From Candidatus Kaiserbacteria bacterium (GTDB lineage Bacteria > Patescibacteriota > Minisyncoccia > Phycocordibacterales > UBA2100), in NCBI GenBank assembly GCA_016867375.1, contig VGJQ01000004.1, forward strand, positions 1 to 46,722: a stretch of 46,722 nucleotides of DNA, given 5' to 3'. The position numbers were made by a program, and so were the translations under genes. How positions within the stretch are numbered: the stretch's first letter is position 1; every line of letters begins with the position of its first letter. Below the pieces are notes generated by a model. The model was not told where the DNA came from and ran no database searches. It saw only the letters and a program-made list of their open reading frames with translations. Positions 1,977 through 42,552 of the stretch are shown here, in pieces.

Positions 1977-3557
1977 TTAGGCGCGGTTGATGAAGATGCG
2001 CGGCATCTCATCGGCATTGTGAGCCTGTGCGATCACCATGGTGTCGCTCGTCGCATTGCGGACTTCGCGTGTCGGGAGATCGGTGAGTACCGTGCTCGGA
2101 GTGCTTGAAGTCTTTTTCTCTGCGACTGCTGTTGCCGCGGTCTGCGTCTTTGCGGGCTGTGCGCGGCGGCTGCCTGCAGTCCCGAGAGCCAGTGCGAAGC
2201 CTCCCTTGTAGTAGACCGCGAGGTAGGCTGCGGCGATCGCGAAGGAGAGAAGAGCTGCCCAGTAGAGTCCGTTGCCGACAGGGCCGAAGTCAAAGCCAGT
2301 GTACGGGATCTGCGAGAGCGAGACGTACGGCTTCACAGGGACCTGCGGCGGTACATATACCGGCGGCTGAGGCACATAGACAGGTGGCTGGTATACCGGC
2401 TGAGCCTGATAGACCACTTGGGTCTGGCAAGTGCCGGTGCCCCCTTCGCCGTAGACGGTCATCGTGTAGATCGTCGTGCCACTCACGGGATAGACCGTCG
2501 TCGAACCGTTGGGATTGACCGAGCCGACATTTGGGCTGATCGATGCGGTGTATGCATTGGTCGAGGACCATGAGAGCGTCACCGGGCTATTGCTGTAGCT
2601 GTTGTAGTAGGAGCTTGAGACCGAGATCGTGCAGGTCGGTGCCTGGCGATTTGCCGGGAAGGTGTAGTTGATCAGCTGTTGGATCGGGGTCTGGAAGACC
2701 GGAGCCGGGTTGTTGTTGATGTTGGTGTTGGTGATAGTGATCGGCTGGCCGTTGACCGTGATCGTGTTGGTGTTGTTGCCTGTCGTATTGGTGTTGGTCG
2801 TCGTATTTTTGATCGGACCGACGGAAGTGCTGTTGTTGATCGGACCTGTCGACGCCGATGCAGTCGTGTTTTGAGTCACCGTCTGATTGCTCGGGATGCC
2901 CGGAGTTGACGGTGTGATGGAGATGGAGATCGGGTTTGACTGCGTCTGAGTGTTGCCCTGTGACTGAGACTGAGTCTGAGTCTGGCCCACCGGACCCGAA
3001 GGGGTGCCGACGACCACAGGACCTGCCATAGAATGTCCGAAGCCGGAGGGCCAGCCCGTATTGATCGGCCAGGTCGGGATCGGGCCGCTGTCTACAAAGT
3101 AGCCGCCGCCAGTCGCATATCCACCGTATCCGCCATAGCCTCCAAATCCGCCTATGCCACCGTAGCTTGGGGTGTAGGAGTACATCGGGGAAGCATAGTT
3201 TCCGTAGTTATAACCACCAAAGCCGTAATCCGGGTACGAGGTATCGTAATAGTCGTTGTACGCAGAGGTGTCGTAATAATCGTAGTTGTATGCGGACGTA
3301 TCGTAATAGTCGTTGTACGCAGAGGTGTCGTAATAATCGTAGTTGTATGCGGACGTATCGTAATAGTCGTTGTACGCAGAGGTGTCGTAGTAGTCATAAC
3401 TGCAACATCCGCCGTCGTATGAGCCGCCGTCGTAGCCATACGCGGAGGTATCATAATAATCGTATTGCGCGAACGCGACCGAAGGAATCATGCCGCCAAG
3501 GGCAAAAATCGCTCCGACAGACATGATCGCAATTTTCTGTGAGTAAGTATTGTTCAT
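1977..3557 (-). CDS. Secreted Tyr/Asp-repeat surface protein with Ig-like domain and C-terminal IPYTG sortase-type sorting signal
   Basis: Signal peptide ending VAFA, YDYYDTSAY repeats, T/N-rich linker, PKD/Ig-like segment (VTLSWSSTNA...TTIYTMTVYG), then LSQIPYTG, a TM helix and basic residues. Confidence 0.8.
   Translation of the reverse strand: MNNTYSQKIAIMSVGAIFALGGMIPSVAFAQYDYYDTSAYGYDGGSYDGGCCSYDYYDTSAYNDYYDTSAYNYDYYDTSAYNDYYDTSAYNYDYYDTSAYNDYYDTSYPDYGFGGYNYGNYASPMYSYTPSYGGIGGFGGYGGYGGYATGGGYFVDSGPIPTWPINTGWPSGFGHSMAGPVVVGTPSGPVGQTQTQSQSQGNTQTQSNPISISITPSTPGIPSNQTVTQNTTASASTGPINNSTSVGPIKNTTTNTNTTGNNTNTITVNGQPITITNTNINNNPAPVFQTPIQQLINYTFPANRQAPTCTISVSSSYYNSYSNSPVTLSWSSTNAYTASISPNVGSVNPNGSTTVYPVSGTTIYTMTVYGEGGTGTCQTQVVYQAQPVYQPPVYVPQPPVYVPPQVPVKPYVSLSQIPYTGFDFGPVGNGLYWAALLSFAIAAAYLAVYYKGGFALALGTAGSRRAQPAKTQTAATAVAEKKTSSTPSTVLTDLPTREVRNATSDTMVIAQAHNADEMPRIFINRA
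3241..3389. repeat. 57-bp tandem repeat (about 2.6 copies) encoding YNYDYYDTSAYNDYYDTSA
   Basis: Identical units start at 3241, 3298 and 3355. Confidence 0.9.
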
Positions 3558-6651: not shown

Positions 6652-6993
6652 ATGTGGAAGAACCTTTTCAAGGGCAAGATCGCCGATGTCATTATCGCCA
6701 TTTTGATCGTCGCGGCTGCCCTGGGTCTCATAGCTGAAGTGAGTCGGACTCATTTCACTTTCTTGCACGCACCGGTCGTCGAGGCATCACAGATGATGCA
6801 GCCGATTCTCGTCTATCTGGCCATGGCGCTTGTCATCTGGTTTTGCATCAGGGGCATGCTCTCCGCTCTCTGGGAGCCGTTTAAGGCCAAAGAGGAGCCA
6901 GCCAAAGGCGGCGGAGGTGGCGGAAGCAAGAAGGATAAAAAGCCTGACCAAAAGAAGAGTGATAATAAGAAAAAAGGCGAGGCGAAGCATTGA
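6652..6993 (+). CDS. Small two-TM membrane protein with Gly/Lys-rich tail
   Basis: GGAGGTG SD, two TM helices, GGGGGGSKKDKK tail, downstream terminator. Confidence 0.7.
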   Translation: MWKNLFKGKIADVIIAILIVAAALGLIAEVSRTHFTFLHAPVVEASQMMQPILVYLAMALVIWFCIRGMLSALWEPFKAKEEPAKGGGGGGSKKDKKPDQKKSDNKKKGEAKH

Positions 6994-6996
6994 TGC

Positions 6997-7084
6997 GGCG
7001 CCACACGATCACGAGTGATCGTGTGGCGCATTCTTTTTGCGTATTCAAAAAAGAATTGGCCGTCGCGTGAAAGCGACGGCCAAG
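6997..7084. terminator. Pair of intrinsic terminators between convergent genes
   Basis: GCGCCACACGATCAC/GTGATCGTGTGGCGC followed by a T-run, and TTGGCCGTCGC/GCGACGGCCAA. Confidence 0.7.
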
Positions 7085-7101
7085 GAAAGATCTGTCCGAT
7101 C

Positions 7102-7833
7102 TCAGAAGCACCCTGAGTGGAACGGGCACTGGACGTTGCCGGGCTTTCCCACTACCACGTCGGTGCCAGGATACACGCCATTACCGGGATCATAACCGTT
7201 ACCGGGGTAGTTTCCGTATCCGATATCTCTACCGGATCCGGCGATCCCCCCGTGACCGACGTCCCAGCCGTATCCGGCAGGTGCGCCGAATCCCGGCACT
7301 GCAGGAACCCCCGGATTTGAGGGTGTTCCTGGAGGCGAGCGAACTCCCGGATCTGAAGGACGTCCCGGGCGTGAGGGAACGCCAGCACGCGAAGGAACTC
7401 CCGGCATTGAAGGAGCGCCAACACGTGCAGGTGTACCAACGATTGCAGGCTTTCCTGCATCCATCGGTACTCCCACAGGTGCCGTCGGGAAGTGGAATGT
7501 TGTGTAATTCGGTCCCGAAGGCACGACATCATACCCAAACGGCTTGATCGGGCCGAAGCTGATGCGTAGTGGCTTTTCCCAGCCCTTGAAGTAGTCCGAC
7601 CAAGAGTATTGCTTCTCTTGTGATGGGCTCGTACGCGGCGGCTGTTGCTGCGTGAAGCCTTGCGGCTTCGGCGGCAACGGACGATCGATGTGCGGGATGA
7701 TCGGCAGATGACCCTGCCTCTCTTGCTGATCAAGATAGGCGGTGCCGACCAGACCGATCAGCAAAAGAATACCCACTCCTTTTGCCGGTGTTTTCCAATC
7801 CGCCATCGGCGGTTCTTTTTTCTTCTTGGCCAT
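7102..7833 (-). CDS. Membrane-anchored Pro/Gly hexapeptide-repeat protein
   Basis: GAAAGGAGGG SD, TM helix, (GxPSxP)n and (GNGYxP)-like repeats, C-terminal CPFHSGCF. Confidence 0.7.
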   Translation of the reverse strand: MAKKKKEPPMADWKTPAKGVGILLLIGLVGTAYLDQQERQGHLPIIPHIDRPLPPKPQGFTQQQPPRTSPSQEKQYSWSDYFKGWEKPLRISFGPIKPFGYDVVPSGPNYTTFHFPTAPVGVPMDAGKPAIVGTPARVGAPSMPGVPSRAGVPSRPGRPSDPGVRSPPGTPSNPGVPAVPGFGAPAGYGWDVGHGGIAGSGRDIGYGNYPGNGYDPGNGVYPGTDVVVGKPGNVQCPFHSGCF

Positions 7834-11168: not shown

Positions 11169-13295
11169 TTAGATATCCAGTGTCGCTTCTTTGGCGTGCG
11201 AGGTGATGAATGATTTGCGGGCCGGGACGTCGGTACCCATGAGCATATCGAAGATGCGATCGGCATCCTGTGCATCGTCGATCGTGACTTGCTTGAGGAC
11301 GCGGTTGGACGGATTCATCGTGGTCTCGGAGAGTTCTTCGGGGTTCATCTCGCCCAAGCCTTTGTAACGCTGGACGGAGATTTTTGCTTGGCGCACCGGA
11401 GCTTTGGCGGAGGCGGCTTCTTCCTCGGTCTCCATCTCATCCGACTCCGCTAAAGCTTCGTCGGACACAGCGGGCATATCCTCGCCGACGTATTCGATGC
11501 GCTGCTCGTCGGTATATGCGTAGAAGACTTCTTTACCCTTCTTGATCTTGTAGAGTGGCGGCTGTGCGATGTAGACGTACCCGCCGTCGATCACGGGGCG
11601 GAAATGACGATAGAAGAGTGTGAGCAGAAGGGTGCGGATGTGCGCTCCGTCGACATCGGCATCGGTCGCGATGATGATCTTGTGGTAACGGAGCTTGGAG
11701 AGGTCGAAGATGTCGCCGATTGCGGTACCCATCGCGACGACGAGATTCTTGATTTGTTCGGAAGCGAGCATTTTGTCGAGGCGGGCGCGCTCGATGTTGA
11801 GGATCTTGCCGCGCAGCGGGAGGATCGCTTGCGTGCGGCGATCGCGACCCATCTTGGCGCTGCCGCCTGCCGAATCGCCCTCTACGATGAAGAGTTCGGA
11901 TTCTTCGGCCGACTTCGTCTGGCAGTCGGCAAGCTTGCCCGGGAGGGTCATGCCGTCGAGCGCTCCTTTGCGGAGGATCGAATCCTTGGCGGCTTTGGCG
12001 GCTTTGCGGGCCTTCATGGCGAGCGCTGCTTTGCCGATGATCTCACGCGCTTCGTCCGGATGCTCCTCGAGAAATGCGGCGAAAGCTTCGCTAAAGACAG
12101 TCTGTGTCGCGCTCAATGCCTCCACCGAGCCGAGCTTACCCTTGGTCTGTCCTTCAAACTGGATTTCGCGCATCTTGATCGAGACGACTGCCGTGAGGCC
12201 TTCGAGGACGTCGTCGCCGGTGAAATTATCGGAATCCTTTCCTCCGGAGGAGGATCCGCCTTTGGCGGAGCCGCTACCTTTTGCAGCGGTGTTGAGCGTG
12301 CGCGTGAGGGCTGTCTTGAAGCCGGTGATGTGTGTGCCGCCTTCGGGATTGTAAATATTATTTGCAAATGCACTGATGCGTGCGGTGATGTCGTCGACGT
12401 ATTGCAGAGCGATCTCCACCTGTACGCTGTCTTTTTCACTGCCGCCTGTTGGGATGAAGTCTTTTTCGACGTAGAAGATCGTCTTGTGAAGCGGGGTCTG
12501 ATGGCGGTTCTGGAAGCCGACGAGACTGCGCAAGCCACCCTCAAAGTAGAAGGTCATTGACGGTGCGTCGATCCCAAGATCGCGCATCCAGAAGGTGTCC
12601 TTCTCGTCGAGTTTGTCGATGTCGCGGCCTGAGAGATCGCGCATGTCGATGATGGTGATGCGTAGGTCCTTGACCAGATAAGCCTGCTGGCGGAGATGAT
12701 TGATGATGGTCTGGAAATGGTATTCGATGACGGAAAAGATCGACGGATCGGCATCGAAGGTGATGATGGTGCCGGTGCGATCGGAGGGGCCGACTTTCTT
12801 TACCTGCGCGACAGGCTTGCCGCCGTTTTTGTATTCCTGCACGTACTTGCCGCCATCGCGATGGACCTCGGCGCGCATGTAGGTGGAGAGCGCATTTACC
12901 ACTGATGCACCAACGCCATGGAGACCGCCGGAGACTTTGTAGCCCTCGCCGCCGAATTTGCCGCCCGCATGAAGCACGGTGAGGATGGTCTCGAGTGCGG
13001 AGACTTTTGTCTTGGGGTGGATGTCGACCGGGATGCCGCGGCCGTTGTCGGTGACGCGGATACGATTGCCCGGCAAGATCGCGACTTCGATGTCGTCGCA
13101 GAAGCCGCCCATCGCTTCGTCGCGTGAGTTGTCGAAGATTTCCCAGACGAGGTGGTGGAGGCCGTCGATTCCGGTGGTACCGATGTACATGCCCGGGCGG
13201 CGGCGCACTGCCTCGAGCCCCTCCAATACCGTGATGTCGGAAGCATCGTAATGACCCGCTTTTTTGGTCTCCTTTGCTGGTGCTTTCTTGGCCAT
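11169..13295 (-). CDS. gyrB: DNA gyrase subunit B
   Basis: LEGLEAVRRRPGMYIG, HAGGKFG, SGGLHGVG, EGDSAGG, LPLRGKILN, TDADVDG, QRYKGLGEM. Confidence 0.95.
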   Translation of the reverse strand: MAKKAPAKETKKAGHYDASDITVLEGLEAVRRRPGMYIGTTGIDGLHHLVWEIFDNSRDEAMGGFCDDIEVAILPGNRIRVTDNGRGIPVDIHPKTKVSALETILTVLHAGGKFGGEGYKVSGGLHGVGASVVNALSTYMRAEVHRDGGKYVQEYKNGGKPVAQVKKVGPSDRTGTIITFDADPSIFSVIEYHFQTIINHLRQQAYLVKDLRITIIDMRDLSGRDIDKLDEKDTFWMRDLGIDAPSMTFYFEGGLRSLVGFQNRHQTPLHKTIFYVEKDFIPTGGSEKDSVQVEIALQYVDDITARISAFANNIYNPEGGTHITGFKTALTRTLNTAAKGSGSAKGGSSSGGKDSDNFTGDDVLEGLTAVVSIKMREIQFEGQTKGKLGSVEALSATQTVFSEAFAAFLEEHPDEAREIIGKAALAMKARKAAKAAKDSILRKGALDGMTLPGKLADCQTKSAEESELFIVEGDSAGGSAKMGRDRRTQAILPLRGKILNIERARLDKMLASEQIKNLVVAMGTAIGDIFDLSKLRYHKIIIATDADVDGAHIRTLLLTLFYRHFRPVIDGGYVYIAQPPLYKIKKGKEVFYAYTDEQRIEYVGEDMPAVSDEALAESDEMETEEEAASAKAPVRQAKISVQRYKGLGEMNPEELSETTMNPSNRVLKQVTIDDAQDADRIFDMLMGTDVPARKSFITSHAKEATLDI

Positions 13296-28596: not shown

Positions 28597-30054
<1,458 letters not shown>

Positions 30055-40669: not shown

Positions 40670-40815
40670 GGATTGAGTATACATTCCATTCCAACATCCA
40701 CGTAGTCTAGTCCACGTAGTCTGACTACGTAAAGCGGCACCTGACACCTTTATTCACAAAGCTTTCAAGCGAATGTCGCAGAATGGCTCAAATACAAGTC
40801 ATTACAGAAGGAGGT

Positions 40816-41298
40816 TTAACCTCTTGTTTTGGATACATTACAGGTTTGTATAAACTCGAACAGTTGATCAAATCCCTGGAAATAATCCTCGTTATGCTTC
40901 CGCGCATCAATAAGGTATTTTTGTATTTCTTGGTTTTTGTAGGCCTTTTCAGTCAGATCAGAAAAGTTCGCGCATGTGGAATCAGAATCTAGCAAGTTTC
41001 TTGCTAAGTTAAATCCAACATCGTTTAAATCGTTAAGAAAATCATCTATCTCGTCGGACGTAAATTTTTTAAGGATGGGGTTATGGTGCTCAATAGCCAT
41101 TGAAATTTTCCTATTCGAACCTGAGTTGAGTCTATCGTAATACAGAAGGGATAATTGATTTTTCCGACTCAACTGATTATTGGCGATGTCGTTTATCTGA
41201 TATGCAGAAAAACCAACCCCGATAACAACAACAAATACTTGGAAGACATCAAGGAATCTTTTTATGTATTCCCACTTTAAGTATCTTTTGAGACTCAT
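40816..41298 (-). CDS. Low-GC hypothetical protein with N-terminal TM (DUF4760-like)
   Basis: AT-rich ORF starting just past the tRNA-Glu 3' end; FLNDLNDVGFNLARNLLD. Confidence 0.65.
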   Translation of the reverse strand: MSLKRYLKWEYIKRFLDVFQVFVVVIGVGFSAYQINDIANNQLSRKNQLSLLYYDRLNSGSNRKISMAIEHHNPILKKFTSDEIDDFLNDLNDVGFNLARNLLDSDSTCANFSDLTEKAYKNQEIQKYLIDARKHNEDYFQGFDQLFEFIQTCNVSKTRG

Positions 41299-41302
41299 GT
41301 TG

Positions 41303-41374
41303 TGACCTCACGGGGAATCGAACCCCGCTTTGATCCGTGAGAGGGATCTGTCCTAGCCGATAGACGATGAGGCC
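41303..41374 (-). tRNA. tRNA-Glu(CUC), CCA not encoded
   Basis: GGCCTCATCGTCTATCGGCTAGGAC, anticodon arm GATCC-CTCTCAC-GGATC, T-loop GTTCGATTCC. Confidence 0.96.
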
Positions 41375-41616
41375 TTTGTGTCGATTTTCTCAAATAAATC
41401 TTTGCGGGCACGAGCGGTTTTCTTGAGGAAAATCTCCCGTTTCCTTGCCATAGTTTTATCATTATATTGTTCTGTGTACAACAGGCTCCATGGTCGATAC
41501 CCCTTTGTCGACCGCACTTCCCCTCTATTATGTTCCTGCAGTCGATTCTCGACATCATGAGATATGCCGATGTAATGACGACTGCTTTCGTTGATGAGGA
41601 TGTAGAGATGCCACAT
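41353..41616 (-). CDS. Stand-alone GIY-YIG nuclease (UPF0213-like)
   Basis: LYILI...HYIGISHDVENRLQEHNRG..RSTKGYRPW...ARKREIFLK. The last codons (ASSSIG-stop) overlap the tRNA 5' end. Confidence 0.92.
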   Translation of the reverse strand: MWHLYILINESSRHYIGISHDVENRLQEHNRGEVRSTKGYRPWSLLYTEQYNDKTMARKREIFLKKTARARKDLFEKIDTKASSSIG

Positions 41617-41620
41617 AGGG

Positions 41621-41730
41621 AACCGTGTCCTCCAGAGGAGGATCCGCCTCCGGCGGAAGAGGGATCTGTCCTACTTGCCCGCCTTTGGCGGGGCCGATAT
41701 CCTCCGAAGGAGGACAGGGACGATGGGGCC
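41621..41730 (-). pseudogene. Duplicated 5' half of tRNA-Glu interrupted by three hairpin insertions
   Basis: Removing 41628-41657, 41674-41692 and 41700-41718 gives GGCCCCATCGTCTATCGGCTAGGACAGATCCCTCTCACGG, 39/40 identical to the tRNA 5' end. Confidence 0.9.
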
Positions 41731-42001
41731 CTTCTTCGCCAAGGCTACGAAGGGCACAGCCTTCCTCGCATAGCGAAATAAGAACTCTTGCAAAATAACA
41801 CAAAAAAAGAACGCGAGCACTCTGCCCGTGTTGTACATTGTAGAAAGTCAGACTTTCTACAATGCGTAAATATTGCAGAAAATGAAAGCGGCGGCGAAGC
41901 AAGCTTTGCTATTTGACTACTGGTTGCCTTTGCTGCATGCTGGGCGCAGTTTGGTATATCTGTGGTGACGTAAGGCTATCACAAGGGGCATCAAAGACAC
42001 C

Positions 42002-42223
42002 TTGGAACGCAGAGCTGCACGGCTCGGCGTGACTCTCGATCAGCTTCGTGAGTATGATAGAAAAGCGCTTCGCGAATCGGACTATCCGACCGCGGATTGT
42101 CTGGGTGAGCATGAGATCAGTGACGCACGCTTGCGGAAGATGATTCTCCATGTGCTGGAGTGTCCCATGTGTGCGGCACTCCTTGATGTCGCGGAGCAGG
42201 ATGCGAAAGCATCGAAAATGTGA
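42002..42223 (+). CDS. Small hypothetical protein with HxxxCxxC zinc motif
   Basis: HVLECPMC; TTG start uncertain. Confidence 0.4.
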   Translation: MERRAARLGVTLDQLREYDRKALRESDYPTADCLGEHEISDARLRKMILHVLECPMCAALLDVAEQDAKASKM

Positions 42224-42258
42224 ACGAGTGAAGCGTTCGATCCATCACGGGTCGGACG

Positions 42259-42516
42259 CTATTTTTCTTTGATCAGCCTGAATCGTGGACGGCCGTCGGG
42301 GAGGGCGGAGAAAAAATCCTTCTCGTGGCGATACCAAAAGTCATGATCGTGTGGCCACAGGTGCTCGTAGATTACTCCCCTCACCTCATGTTGCTCACAG
42401 TCCCGCACACCGCGCTGTACGAGCCGGTAGATGCCACCTTTGTAGTGCTCGTACACTTCGCCGGGTGCGGCGAGCGCTTCTTCACGGGTGGCACAGAGCG
42501 GGTGTTCGTCTGTCAT
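42259..42516 (-). CDS. DUF1653 domain protein
   Basis: GEVYEHYKGGIY, VIYEHL, WYR...FF, PRFRL. Confidence 0.85.
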   Translation of the reverse strand: MTDEHPLCATREEALAAPGEVYEHYKGGIYRLVQRGVRDCEQHEVRGVIYEHLWPHDHDFWYRHEKDFFSALPDGRPRFRLIKEK

Positions 42517-42552
42517 GTCGTGTGAATAATGTAGGACATCGGATGTCCTACA

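Follow-up and report, generated by a model that had tools for sequence, protein, structure and literature searches.

A probable mobile GIY-YIG nuclease cassette at tRNA-Glu and a dispersed family of short hairpins in a Candidatus Kaiserbacteria genome

Overview

A 46,722-nucleotide (nt) stretch of contig VGJQ01000004.1 from a Candidatus Kaiserbacteria bacterium (assembly GCA_016867375.1), hereafter the window, carries on its minus strand a small open reading frame (ORF) for a GIY-YIG nuclease, set between an intact tRNA-Glu(CTC) gene and a displaced, hairpin-bearing copy of the 5′ part of the same tRNA. The locus is probably a small mobile cassette, of the type formed by free-standing homing endonucleases, and comparison between genomes supports a tRNA-associated, lineage-specific distribution for it. 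The same comparisons support the existence of some process that inserts short hairpins precisely, without target duplication, including inside protein genes. Coordinates are window positions; the window's own genome (50 contigs, 1.008 Mb) is designated G000, and C- and L-numbers denote contigs and loci, respectively.

Organization of the tRNA-Glu locus

The functional copy of tRNA-Glu(CTC) occupies 41302..41374 on the minus strand (ARAGORN; Rfam RF00005, 51 bits), the stand-alone GIY-YIG ORF of 87 amino acids (aa) occupies 41353..41616, and the displaced copy, which reaches from tRNA nt 1 to approximately nt 43 and holds three inserts, occupies 41620..41730, all three being co-oriented. Read on the minus strand from 41730 to 41621, the fragment consists of tRNA nt 1-12, a 19-nt insert, nt 13-19, a second 19-nt insert, nt 20-35, a 30-nt insert and nt 36-42. 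Once the inserts are removed from the gapped alignment, the fragment is identical to nt 1-40 of the intact tRNA at 39/40 positions, or at 40/42 when extended, and the insert borders display zero target duplication and zero deletion, just as an earlier note, made from the letters of the window alone, had read them. That note had also correctly placed the stop codon of the ORF inside the tRNA: the TAG (41355-41353) is tRNA nt 20-22, and the first 22 nt of the intact tRNA-Glu double as the final residues and stop codon of the nuclease. At its other end, the ORF begins 3 nt beyond the end of the fragment, where its ATG lies. No sigma-70-like promoter was found in 41200-42050, although the consensus used may not fit the promoters of this lineage.

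Insert 1 (41700..41718, minus strand; 19 nt, after tRNA nt 12) comprises a CCTG tail and a TCCTCC-TTC-GGAGGA hairpin (-7.8 kcal/mol), and insert 2 (41674..41692, minus strand; 19 nt, after nt 19) comprises a CCCGCC-AAA-GGCGGG hairpin and a CAAG tail (-10.7 kcal/mol). Insert 3 (41628..41657, minus strand; 30 nt), which separates anticodon nt 35 from nt 36, is a double hairpin (-17.4 kcal/mol) composed of TCCGCC-GGA-GGCGGA followed by TCCTCC-TCT-GGAGGA. The earlier note had described three hairpins with a shared stem; the shared motif is real, but insert 3 consists of two adjacent 15-nt hairpins and the locus therefore holds four motif units, not three. A further repeat that the note had placed at 41729-41756 is indeed a hairpin, at approximately 41728-41755 (41728..41755 on the minus strand; 7-bp stem and 14-nt loop by RNA folding), which abuts the 5′ end of the fragment and overlaps its nt 1-3 with the 3′ arm, but it does not contain the TCCNCC/GGNGGA motif. 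Folding of the fragment as RNA gives z = -2.1; however, the hairpins are also able to pair among themselves, and the fold therefore decides nothing about function.

The ORF product matches PF01541 well above the cut-off (55 bits against 22.6; E 1.1e-14), and the catalytic domain, residues 1-71, makes up nearly the entire protein. Residues Y5, Y15, G17, R25, H29, E61 and K65 are invariant in an alignment of 20 tRNA-linked relatives, and Y5, Y15, R25, H29 and E61 are taken here to have the catalytic roles assigned in work on I-TevI. With its catalytic residues intact, the nuclease looks active. Pfam and NCBIfam scans detected no second domain in the 87-aa ORF, and NCBIfam gave no match whatever. 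G000 possesses three further GIY-YIG paralogues, on contigs C47, C15 and C27.

Empty sites and relationship of the nuclease to tRNA identity

The tRNA-Glu(CTC) gene is unoccupied, with neither ORF nor fragment upstream, in 4/4 congeners examined (G004, G011, G014 and G022). A murF homologue lies beside tRNA-Glu(CTC) in G004 and G014 (L251), as it does in the window, and ends 23 nt upstream of the tRNA in G004, whereas the gap between murF and the tRNA in the window is approximately 1.2 kb (41375-42552). Read against these alleles, the cassette in the window is an insertion at tRNA-Glu(CTC). The interval 41375-42552 also holds a DUF1653 ORF (42259-42516, minus strand) and a 73-aa ORF (42002-42223, plus strand), and has therefore gained more than the cassette. 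Nucleotide 5 of the fragment is C, the ancestral state, as in the four congeners, and the intact window tRNA has changed to T5-A68. The fragment carries the anticodon-stem sequence of the window genome itself, and the duplication is therefore younger than the split from the four congeners.

A FastTree phylogeny was constructed from a pooled, non-redundant set of 82 tRNA-linked GIY-YIG ORFs, the origin of which is described below. The amino-acid label of the associated tRNA changes 21 times on this tree, compared with 44-57 times in 200 label shuffles, and clades for Ser(GGA), Glu, Arg(TCT), Arg(CCT) and Met cross phyla. The window ORF clusters with Glu-linked ORFs from Taylorbacteria and other Patescibacteria. 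Many forks are unresolved and labels are shared by related genomes, so the comparison indicates an association and not a rate, and overstates independence. ORF clades track tRNA identity. The earlier note had proposed a mobile GIY-YIG cassette that targets tRNA genes, and this proposal is supported by the empty congener sites, the tRNA-specific clades and the 82 loci.

Recurrence of the tRNA-nuclease layout

GIY-YIG homologues were recovered from 34/41 related genomes. A tRNA lies directly downstream on the same strand for 23 of the 108 ORF hits (106 loci) in these genomes, and for 14 of the 30 best loci. A second search covered a species-wide collection with one genome per species and used the four closest ORFs as query, a broader 20-sequence alignment being too diverse to serve as a query for loci; it yielded 248 relatives, from which 80 loci were kept. 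A downstream tRNA is present at 63/80 of these, a set that is biased towards relatives of the window ORF by the choice of query. In the pooled set, the stop codon falls inside the tRNA at 42/82 loci, and a strict 5′ tRNA fragment, defined as beginning at tRNA nt 1-3 with identity of at least 85%, is present at 63/82. At least one hairpin-forming insert occurs in 58/63 of these fragments. The three-part layout of fragment, ORF and intact tRNA is seen at no fewer than 19 tRNA anticodon types in several phyla. Its carriers among Patescibacteria include candidate Kaiserbacteria, Taylorbacteria, Saccharibacteria and others, and elsewhere they include Bacteroidota (Flavobacteriaceae, Saprospiraceae, Chitinophagaceae and Bacteroidales), Ignavibacteria and WOR-3.

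G000 itself contains a second cassette, at tRNA-Ala(TGC) (C47, 2028-2400; also L104). The 5′ fragment of tRNA-Ala bears a 35-nt hairpin in its D loop, the ATG of the ORF is created in the anticodon loop of the fragment, and the stop codon again lies inside the intact tRNA. The paralogue on C27 has no tRNA nearby. On C15 (7500-8100; also L106), the GIY-YIG ORF sits between direct repeats of a tRNA-like 3′ end and is preceded by a tandem repeat of approximately 95 nt, with similar arrangements at L076 and L091; here it seems from the repeats that the 3′ side of the RNA gene has been duplicated instead.

Related ORFs were also observed in other settings. At L018 (G033:C2, ~6900-7300), a GIY-YIG ORF is found within a 16S rRNA gene, in a helix loop close to the 5′ end, the flanking arms of the helix being CCACACCTC and GAGGTGTGG. 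A subgroup comprising L021, L026, L039, L047, L049, L022, L024, L013 and about 12 more loci is bounded by an inverted repeat of 10-21 nt, in which the 5′ flank pairs with the 3′ end of the ORF. The element at L021 and L026 is placed precisely at the start codon of the following gene and has TATG on either side; at L026 this gene starts MCGI and is presumably GlmS-like. The downstream tRNA at L002/L137 (G014:C2, ~60650-60750) is 93 nt long owing to an internal 21-nt tandem duplication; ARAGORN labels it Gln(CTG), but a damaged tRNA-Glu(TTC) is the probable identity. At L007 (G006:C35), the restored Asp-like tRNA is broken again past the anticodon loop, with another, remnant GIY-YIG sequence downstream, and at L009 (G037:C16) two successive 5′ fragments of tRNA-Ser(GGA) precede the intact gene. 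By their arrangement, L007 and L009 are nested or serial events.

Hairpins as companions of the cassette

Insert positions within the fragments peak after tRNA nt 9, 12, 21-22 (30 cases) and 35-36. A double hairpin at the anticodon position, nt 35/36, is present in the window, L006, L136, L140 and L143, and occurs in Glu cassettes of Taylorbacteria, Saccharibacteria and others; at L006, which is a tRNA-Ser(TGA) cassette of another family, it is a perfect 30-nt palindrome. The arms of the double hairpins covary as TCCGCC/GGCGGA, TCCACC/GGTGGA, TCCGC/GCGGA and CCCTCC/GGAGGG. A double hairpin is also kept approximately 20 nt upstream of the ATG at the orthologous loci L002-L004, and compensatory arm changes distinguish the orthologous upstream hairpins of L001 and L002. 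After nt 12 of tRNA-Glu, a similar 19-mer (hairpin plus 4-nt tail) is found in the window, with TCCTCC arms, and in L136, in the opposite orientation and with TCCGCC arms. The usual companion in Bacteroidota is a 20-nt palindrome, CCTGCCTGCCGGCAGGCAGG, which in Arg and Met fragments separates the D loop from the 3′ D stem; Patescibacteria cassettes have it as well, at genes for Leu, Asp-like, Ser and Glu tRNAs. These fixed tRNA positions and compensatory arm substitutions identify the hairpins as conserved companions of the cassette. They may serve as insulators or attenuators, break up the direct repeat, or mark the cut sites of the nuclease.

A dispersed hairpin family inside protein genes

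The unit of the family is 15 nt long, TCCNCC-N3-GGNGGA, and is often paired to 30 nt. The pattern YCCKCC-N3-5-GGMGGR has 30 matches in the 1.0-Mb genome, compared with 0-5 in five Markov-1 simulated genomes, and 24 units in G000 are perfectly paired. The hairpins are a dispersed family of GC-rich mini-palindromes and not the product of random decay. One match, at C13:22171, is an ordinary terminator with a T run after it.

Thirteen G000 units at eight loci lie inside ORFs of 246-712 aa and all begin at codon position 1; the in-frame reading of TCCNCC units in long ORFs is S-A-x-G-G. In atpD, a 30-nt double hairpin (29950..29979, minus strand) is in frame, and its peptide corresponds to a 9-residue gap relative to the ATP synthase beta chain of PDB 7xkh_D. 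The insert is absent at this spot from 23/29 related AtpD N-termini. In G022 the corresponding position is occupied by a double hairpin, the first unit of which differs by a compensatory T>C / A>G change, and G004 and G031 have other hairpins at the same spot. The family member in gyrB (12240..12269, minus strand) is likewise in frame and reads SAKGGSSSGG; alignment to Escherichia coli GyrB gives gaps of 5 and 2 residues in a linker, which is consistent with an insertion but not exact. A second surface loop of AtpD (window ~29860-29900; L108, L115 and L123) holds different lineage-specific insertions, the DNA of which is hairpin-forming in several congeners. Hairpin-derived loop insertions are suggested to be common in this genus.

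The congener G011 contains 27 double units and 0 matches to a reversed control pattern. Thirteen of 15 sites examined there lie inside frames of 235-873 aa, all at offset 0, and the remaining two are the GIY-YIG locus and an open frame of 149 aa in which the codon offset differs. At the nine sites with a spanning G000 orthologue, the gap is exactly 10 residues in 7/9 and 7-8 residues in 2/9, and the empty site already has the Lys codon that follows the G011 insert. The insertion thus added exactly 30 nt and duplicated nothing. In pooled flanks, T occupies position -2 in 39/50 half-sites and A occupies position -1 in only 2, giving a roughly symmetric target preference of approximately YTK/.../MAR (slashes mark the insert borders). 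The sites in the anticodon loop, CTCT/, TTTT/ and CTTG/, also fit the YTK preference. A hairpin-writing process, as the earlier note had proposed from the tRNA fragment, is upheld by these clean insertions and extends to protein genes. Surviving copies sit in tolerant places, namely a redundant tRNA fragment and the surface loops of proteins. The dominant palindrome family varies by congener: G011 has 72 TCC-type and 1 CCTG-type units, compared with 1 and 20, respectively, in G037. In five Bacteroidota genomes, the 20-nt palindrome family has 15-52 matches, compared with 0-6 for a control.

A homing-type model of the cassette

Since the 5′ part of the tRNA is present twice, the tRNA would keep its function in the occupied allele. 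The ORF is most likely expressed from the tRNA transcription unit, given that no promoter-like site was found, and 5′ processing of the tRNA would then sever the message ahead of the stop codon, because the latter lies inside the tRNA. Mobile ORFs of fungal mitochondria that bring along a duplicated gene end offer an analogy, by which the nuclease probably cuts the unoccupied tRNA gene, after which repair would copy in the ORF together with the adjacent 5′ part of the tRNA.

Several observations weigh against this model. The case for a cassette is comparative throughout. Residues 1-71 of the 87 belong to the catalytic domain, and the ORF has no separate DNA-binding module of the kind that gives I-TevI its site specificity; sequence-specific homing is therefore not obvious. 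The regenerated intact tRNA should keep any target site, leaving the escape of the occupied allele unexplained. The fragment is nearly identical to the intact tRNA (39/40), and a foreign origin of the restoring copy is therefore not shown.

A related locus on contig C8 (~2290-2745, minus strand) raises a further difficulty, as it contains a tRNA-Glu(TTC) 5′ fragment without an ORF and with inserts at the three positions occupied in the window. Insert 1 of the window is shared at the same place and insert 2 is near-identical there. The C8 fragment lies inside a tandem duplication that spans tRNA nt 1 to ~55 and approximately 120 nt of flank upstream of it, with an extra hairpin at the junction, and the orthologous locus in congeners, which lies beside tRNA-Ser(CGA), contains a GIY-YIG ORF. 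Hairpin-laden fragments can therefore exist, or persist, without the nuclease gene. Moreover, the window fragment (on C4) and the C8 fragment each match the tRNA next to them wherever the TTC and CTC tRNAs differ, yet share inserts 1 and 2, and no simple history accounts for this sharing. Descent with gene conversion and independent site-specific insertion are both possible origins.

Candidate enzymes for hairpin insertion

The earlier note had called the hairpin-writing process transposase-free, a description that does not hold for this genome, as G000 encodes 13 RAYT-like Y1 (HUH) ORFs of 223-261 aa. Most of these are flanked by palindromes of their own, with a central GTCNGAC or GCGACGC, none of which resembles TCCNCC. 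The RAYT-like ORFs and their palindromes form a classic REP/RAYT-type population in a 1-Mb genome, and solo RAYT-type palindromes adjoin the tRNA-Glu locus at window positions 41836-41864 and ~40705-40740.

Hairpin load correlates with GIY-YIG genes, as the earlier note had expected, but to nearly the same degree with Y1 genes: across the 41 genomes, which are related and hence non-independent, the Spearman coefficient for hairpin count is 0.62 with GIY-YIG and 0.60 with Y1, and the two candidates are not separated. Co-occurrence was also tabulated in 301 genomes of the order, likewise non-independent, with a GIY-YIG profile of the four closest ORFs at E<=1e-12 and presence or absence read by eye. 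At least nine TCC-type units are present in 27/301 genomes; GIY-YIG is found in 24/27 of these hairpin-rich genomes compared with 154/301 overall, and the Y1 control in 25/27 compared with 175/301. The link between nuclease and hairpins that the earlier note had drawn is real as a physical association, whereas a causal link is not shown. An enzyme such as a RAYT-like transposase is a tentative candidate for the inserter and GIY-YIG a fainter one, with the remaining weight falling on neither.

The first of these candidates, possible but short of likely, is that another mover, either a RAYT-like HUH enzyme acting in trans or replication and repair, inserts the hairpins and that the GIY-YIG cassette is a bystander landing pad, in which hairpins gather because the fragment is dispensable, highly transcribed and structured. 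The duplication-free insertion of hairpins beside a short T-rich target resembles single-strand HUH transposition. G000 has its 13 RAYT-like ORFs, and Y1 is as enriched as GIY-YIG in hairpin-rich genomes. Most genomic copies of the hairpins are far from any GIY-YIG gene, the dominant palindrome families differ among genomes, as with REPs, and hairpin-laden tRNA fragments without an ORF exist at C8 and L235. The latter (G042:C1, ~620500-620760; Cytophagales) is a tRNA-Ile 5′ fragment with a 20-nt CCTGCC palindrome and no GIY-YIG ORF, and lies upstream of a tRNA-Ile/tRNA-Ala pair, a pairing typical of the rRNA operon spacer. However, the RAYT-like ORFs mostly have other flanking palindromes, none of them TCCNCC-like, and G025 has a double hairpin at its GIY-YIG locus but no Y1 match. 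The occupancy of 58/63 fragments and the fixed positions across phyla are hard to obtain by passive accumulation, and the anticodon double hairpin persists with covarying arms in Kaiserbacteria, Taylorbacteria and Saccharibacteria.

It is less likely that the GIY-YIG nuclease itself mobilizes the hairpins, in a REP/RAYT-like pair in which GIY-YIG replaces the HUH transposase; in a variant of this explanation, the enzyme cuts at palindrome ends and at T-rich/A-rich targets, and the 15/30-nt units are relocated through ligation by the host. In 58/63 fragments, hairpins are located immediately 5′ of the ORF, the only two units in G025 are both at its GIY-YIG locus, and the 30-mer at the GIY-YIG locus of G011 is the commonest variant in that genome (6 copies). 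Congeners with a window-type ORF have 22, 10, 72 and 12 units, compared with a median of 3 in the other 21. A similar 19-mer sits at one tRNA-Glu position in either orientation, depending on the lineage, a sign that tRNA-Glu DNA is cut at a specific site, and the TCCNCC palindrome is found in the flanks of 0/13 RAYT-like genes. On the other hand, co-occurrence is non-specific (24/27 for GIY-YIG, 25/27 for Y1), approximately 40/114 hairpin-free genomes have GIY-YIG by a hand count, and the complete genome G064 has 9 units but no GIY-YIG candidate. In the five Bacteroidota genomes, 0/20 palindrome sites examined adjoin a GIY-YIG ORF. GIY-YIG enzymes are not known to form a covalent intermediate and so would perform no strand transfer alone, which also counts against them.

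More doubtful still is the broadest proposal, that GIY-YIG nucleases and mini-palindromes together constitute an unrecognized mobile system of Patescibacteria, Bacteroidota and other phyla, which resides in tRNA genes by restoring their 5′ part while the same enzyme spreads the hairpins. The enzyme in such a system would cut palindrome ends and short T-rich/A-rich targets, the 15/30-nt units would be copied to new sites, and hairpins in essential protein genes would become Gly/Ser-rich loops. A non-mobile origin, in which slippage produced the tandem duplication, a small GIY-YIG gene is present by chance and terminator- or attenuator-like hairpins were selected in place, is highly improbable: C8 is a plain tandem duplication without an ORF and some motif matches are ordinary terminators (C13:22171), but the three-part layout at 19 or more anticodon types in several phyla, the empty tRNA site in all four congeners, the ORF clades that follow tRNA type and the exact 30-nt insertions in conserved proteins, which show that hairpins move, all argue against it.

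Comparison with known systems

The closest analogue of the probable cassette is the mitochondrial mobile ORF with a duplicated gene end. The available part of PMC3630166 describes fungal mitochondrial mobile endonuclease ORFs of this kind (Allomyces atp6; Glomus atp6, atp9, cox2 and nad3), including a GIY-YIG ORF in Glomus atp9, in which one copy of the gene end keeps the gene whole and the other is a fragment. As in those cases, the endonuclease ORF of the window lies between a functional and a displaced copy of a gene end. The host gene of the window is, however, a bacterial tRNA gene and not a mitochondrial protein gene, the duplicated end is 5′ and not 3′, the ORF is only 87 aa long and the fragment has conserved palindromic inserts. 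A foreign restoring copy is the hallmark of the mitochondrial elements, whereas the two copies in the window differ at 1/40 nt.

GIY-YIG ORFs have been reported in rRNA insertions of the candidate phyla radiation (CPR) outside group I/II introns (Tsurumaki et al. 2024, PMC11270868, in its available part). Like the window ORF, these are small Patescibacteria GIY-YIG ORFs in structured-RNA genes, to which L018, in a 16S rRNA helix, may be compared; the terms 'tRNA', 'hairpin' and 'palindrom' do not occur in the available text of that source, which does not describe a tRNA layout with a restoring 5′ copy. Prokaryotic tRNA gene fragments are attributed only to integration and CRISPR activity in the accessible portion of bioRxiv 10.1101/2022.07.05.498093, where 'endonuclease' and 'hairpin' have 0 occurrences. 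Integrase islands and prophages in tRNA genes, as treated in the same portion, resemble the window locus in being bordered by one partial and one complete tRNA; unlike them, the window insert is approximately 260 nt long, has no integrase and duplicates the 5′ part of the tRNA. An integrase-type element was rejected, as only the 87-aa GIY-YIG ORF lies between the repeats and the repeated part of the tRNA is 5′, not 3′. A group I intron was also rejected: Rfam matches in 41100-42100 at E<=1 are the tRNA and two sub-threshold chance matches, and the downstream tRNA is complete. A literature search on GIY-YIG with tRNA genes, tRNA fragments and Patescibacteria/CPR retrieved no account of the layout, supplements, which could list cases, lying outside the search. 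A search on palindromic insertions in Patescibacteria found nothing relevant.

The hairpin family resembles REP/RAYT in its dispersed, short, GC-rich palindromes, in the copies beside a nuclease gene and in family expansions that differ by genome. Unlike REPs, the TCCNCC units have no GTAG/CGTC tag (the tag as given in the available part of PMC3733652). The neighbouring gene in the window is GIY-YIG and not HUH, the palindromes are on the 5′ side only, and many TCCNCC copies are intragenic (13 G000 units; 13/15 G011 sites) and not extragenic. True RAYT-like genes with their own REPs, by contrast, coexist in G000.

Rickettsia palindromic elements likewise insert into RNA genes and, without breaking the reading frame, into protein genes. 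Mitochondrial hairpin-forming repeats (RHE) enter rRNA and protein genes (PMC2800124, available part). Compared with the Rickettsia elements and those of mitochondria (GC clusters, double-hairpin elements and RHE), the units in the window are far smaller, at 15/30 nt, and are inserted exactly, in one reading frame, as a Gly/Ser/Ala linker. Their hosts are bacteria of free-living type with genomes of ~1 Mb, in which the units are associated with nuclease cassettes at tRNA genes.

Implications

Whichever enzyme inserts the hairpins, the loci described here represent a compact class of nuclease cassette in the tRNA genes of many bacteria, one that accounts for many of the tRNAs called 'partial' and of the small genes annotated as 'GIY-YIG family protein'. 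The cassette would provide a selfish gene with an intron-free way to occupy an essential RNA gene, by carrying a replacement for the part that it displaces. By entering core genes in frame, among them atpD and gyrB, the exact 30-nt palindromes supply ultra-small bacteria with insertions in protein loops, and form a clean natural record of insertion with empty sites in sister species. Several carriers are cultured Bacteroidota (Winogradskyella and Gaetbulibacter), and the hairpin-inserting enzyme is therefore directly testable. If the unlikely proposal of a joint nuclease-palindrome system were true, it would be a counterpart of REP/RAYT that has another nuclease fold at its core and that remodels proteins.

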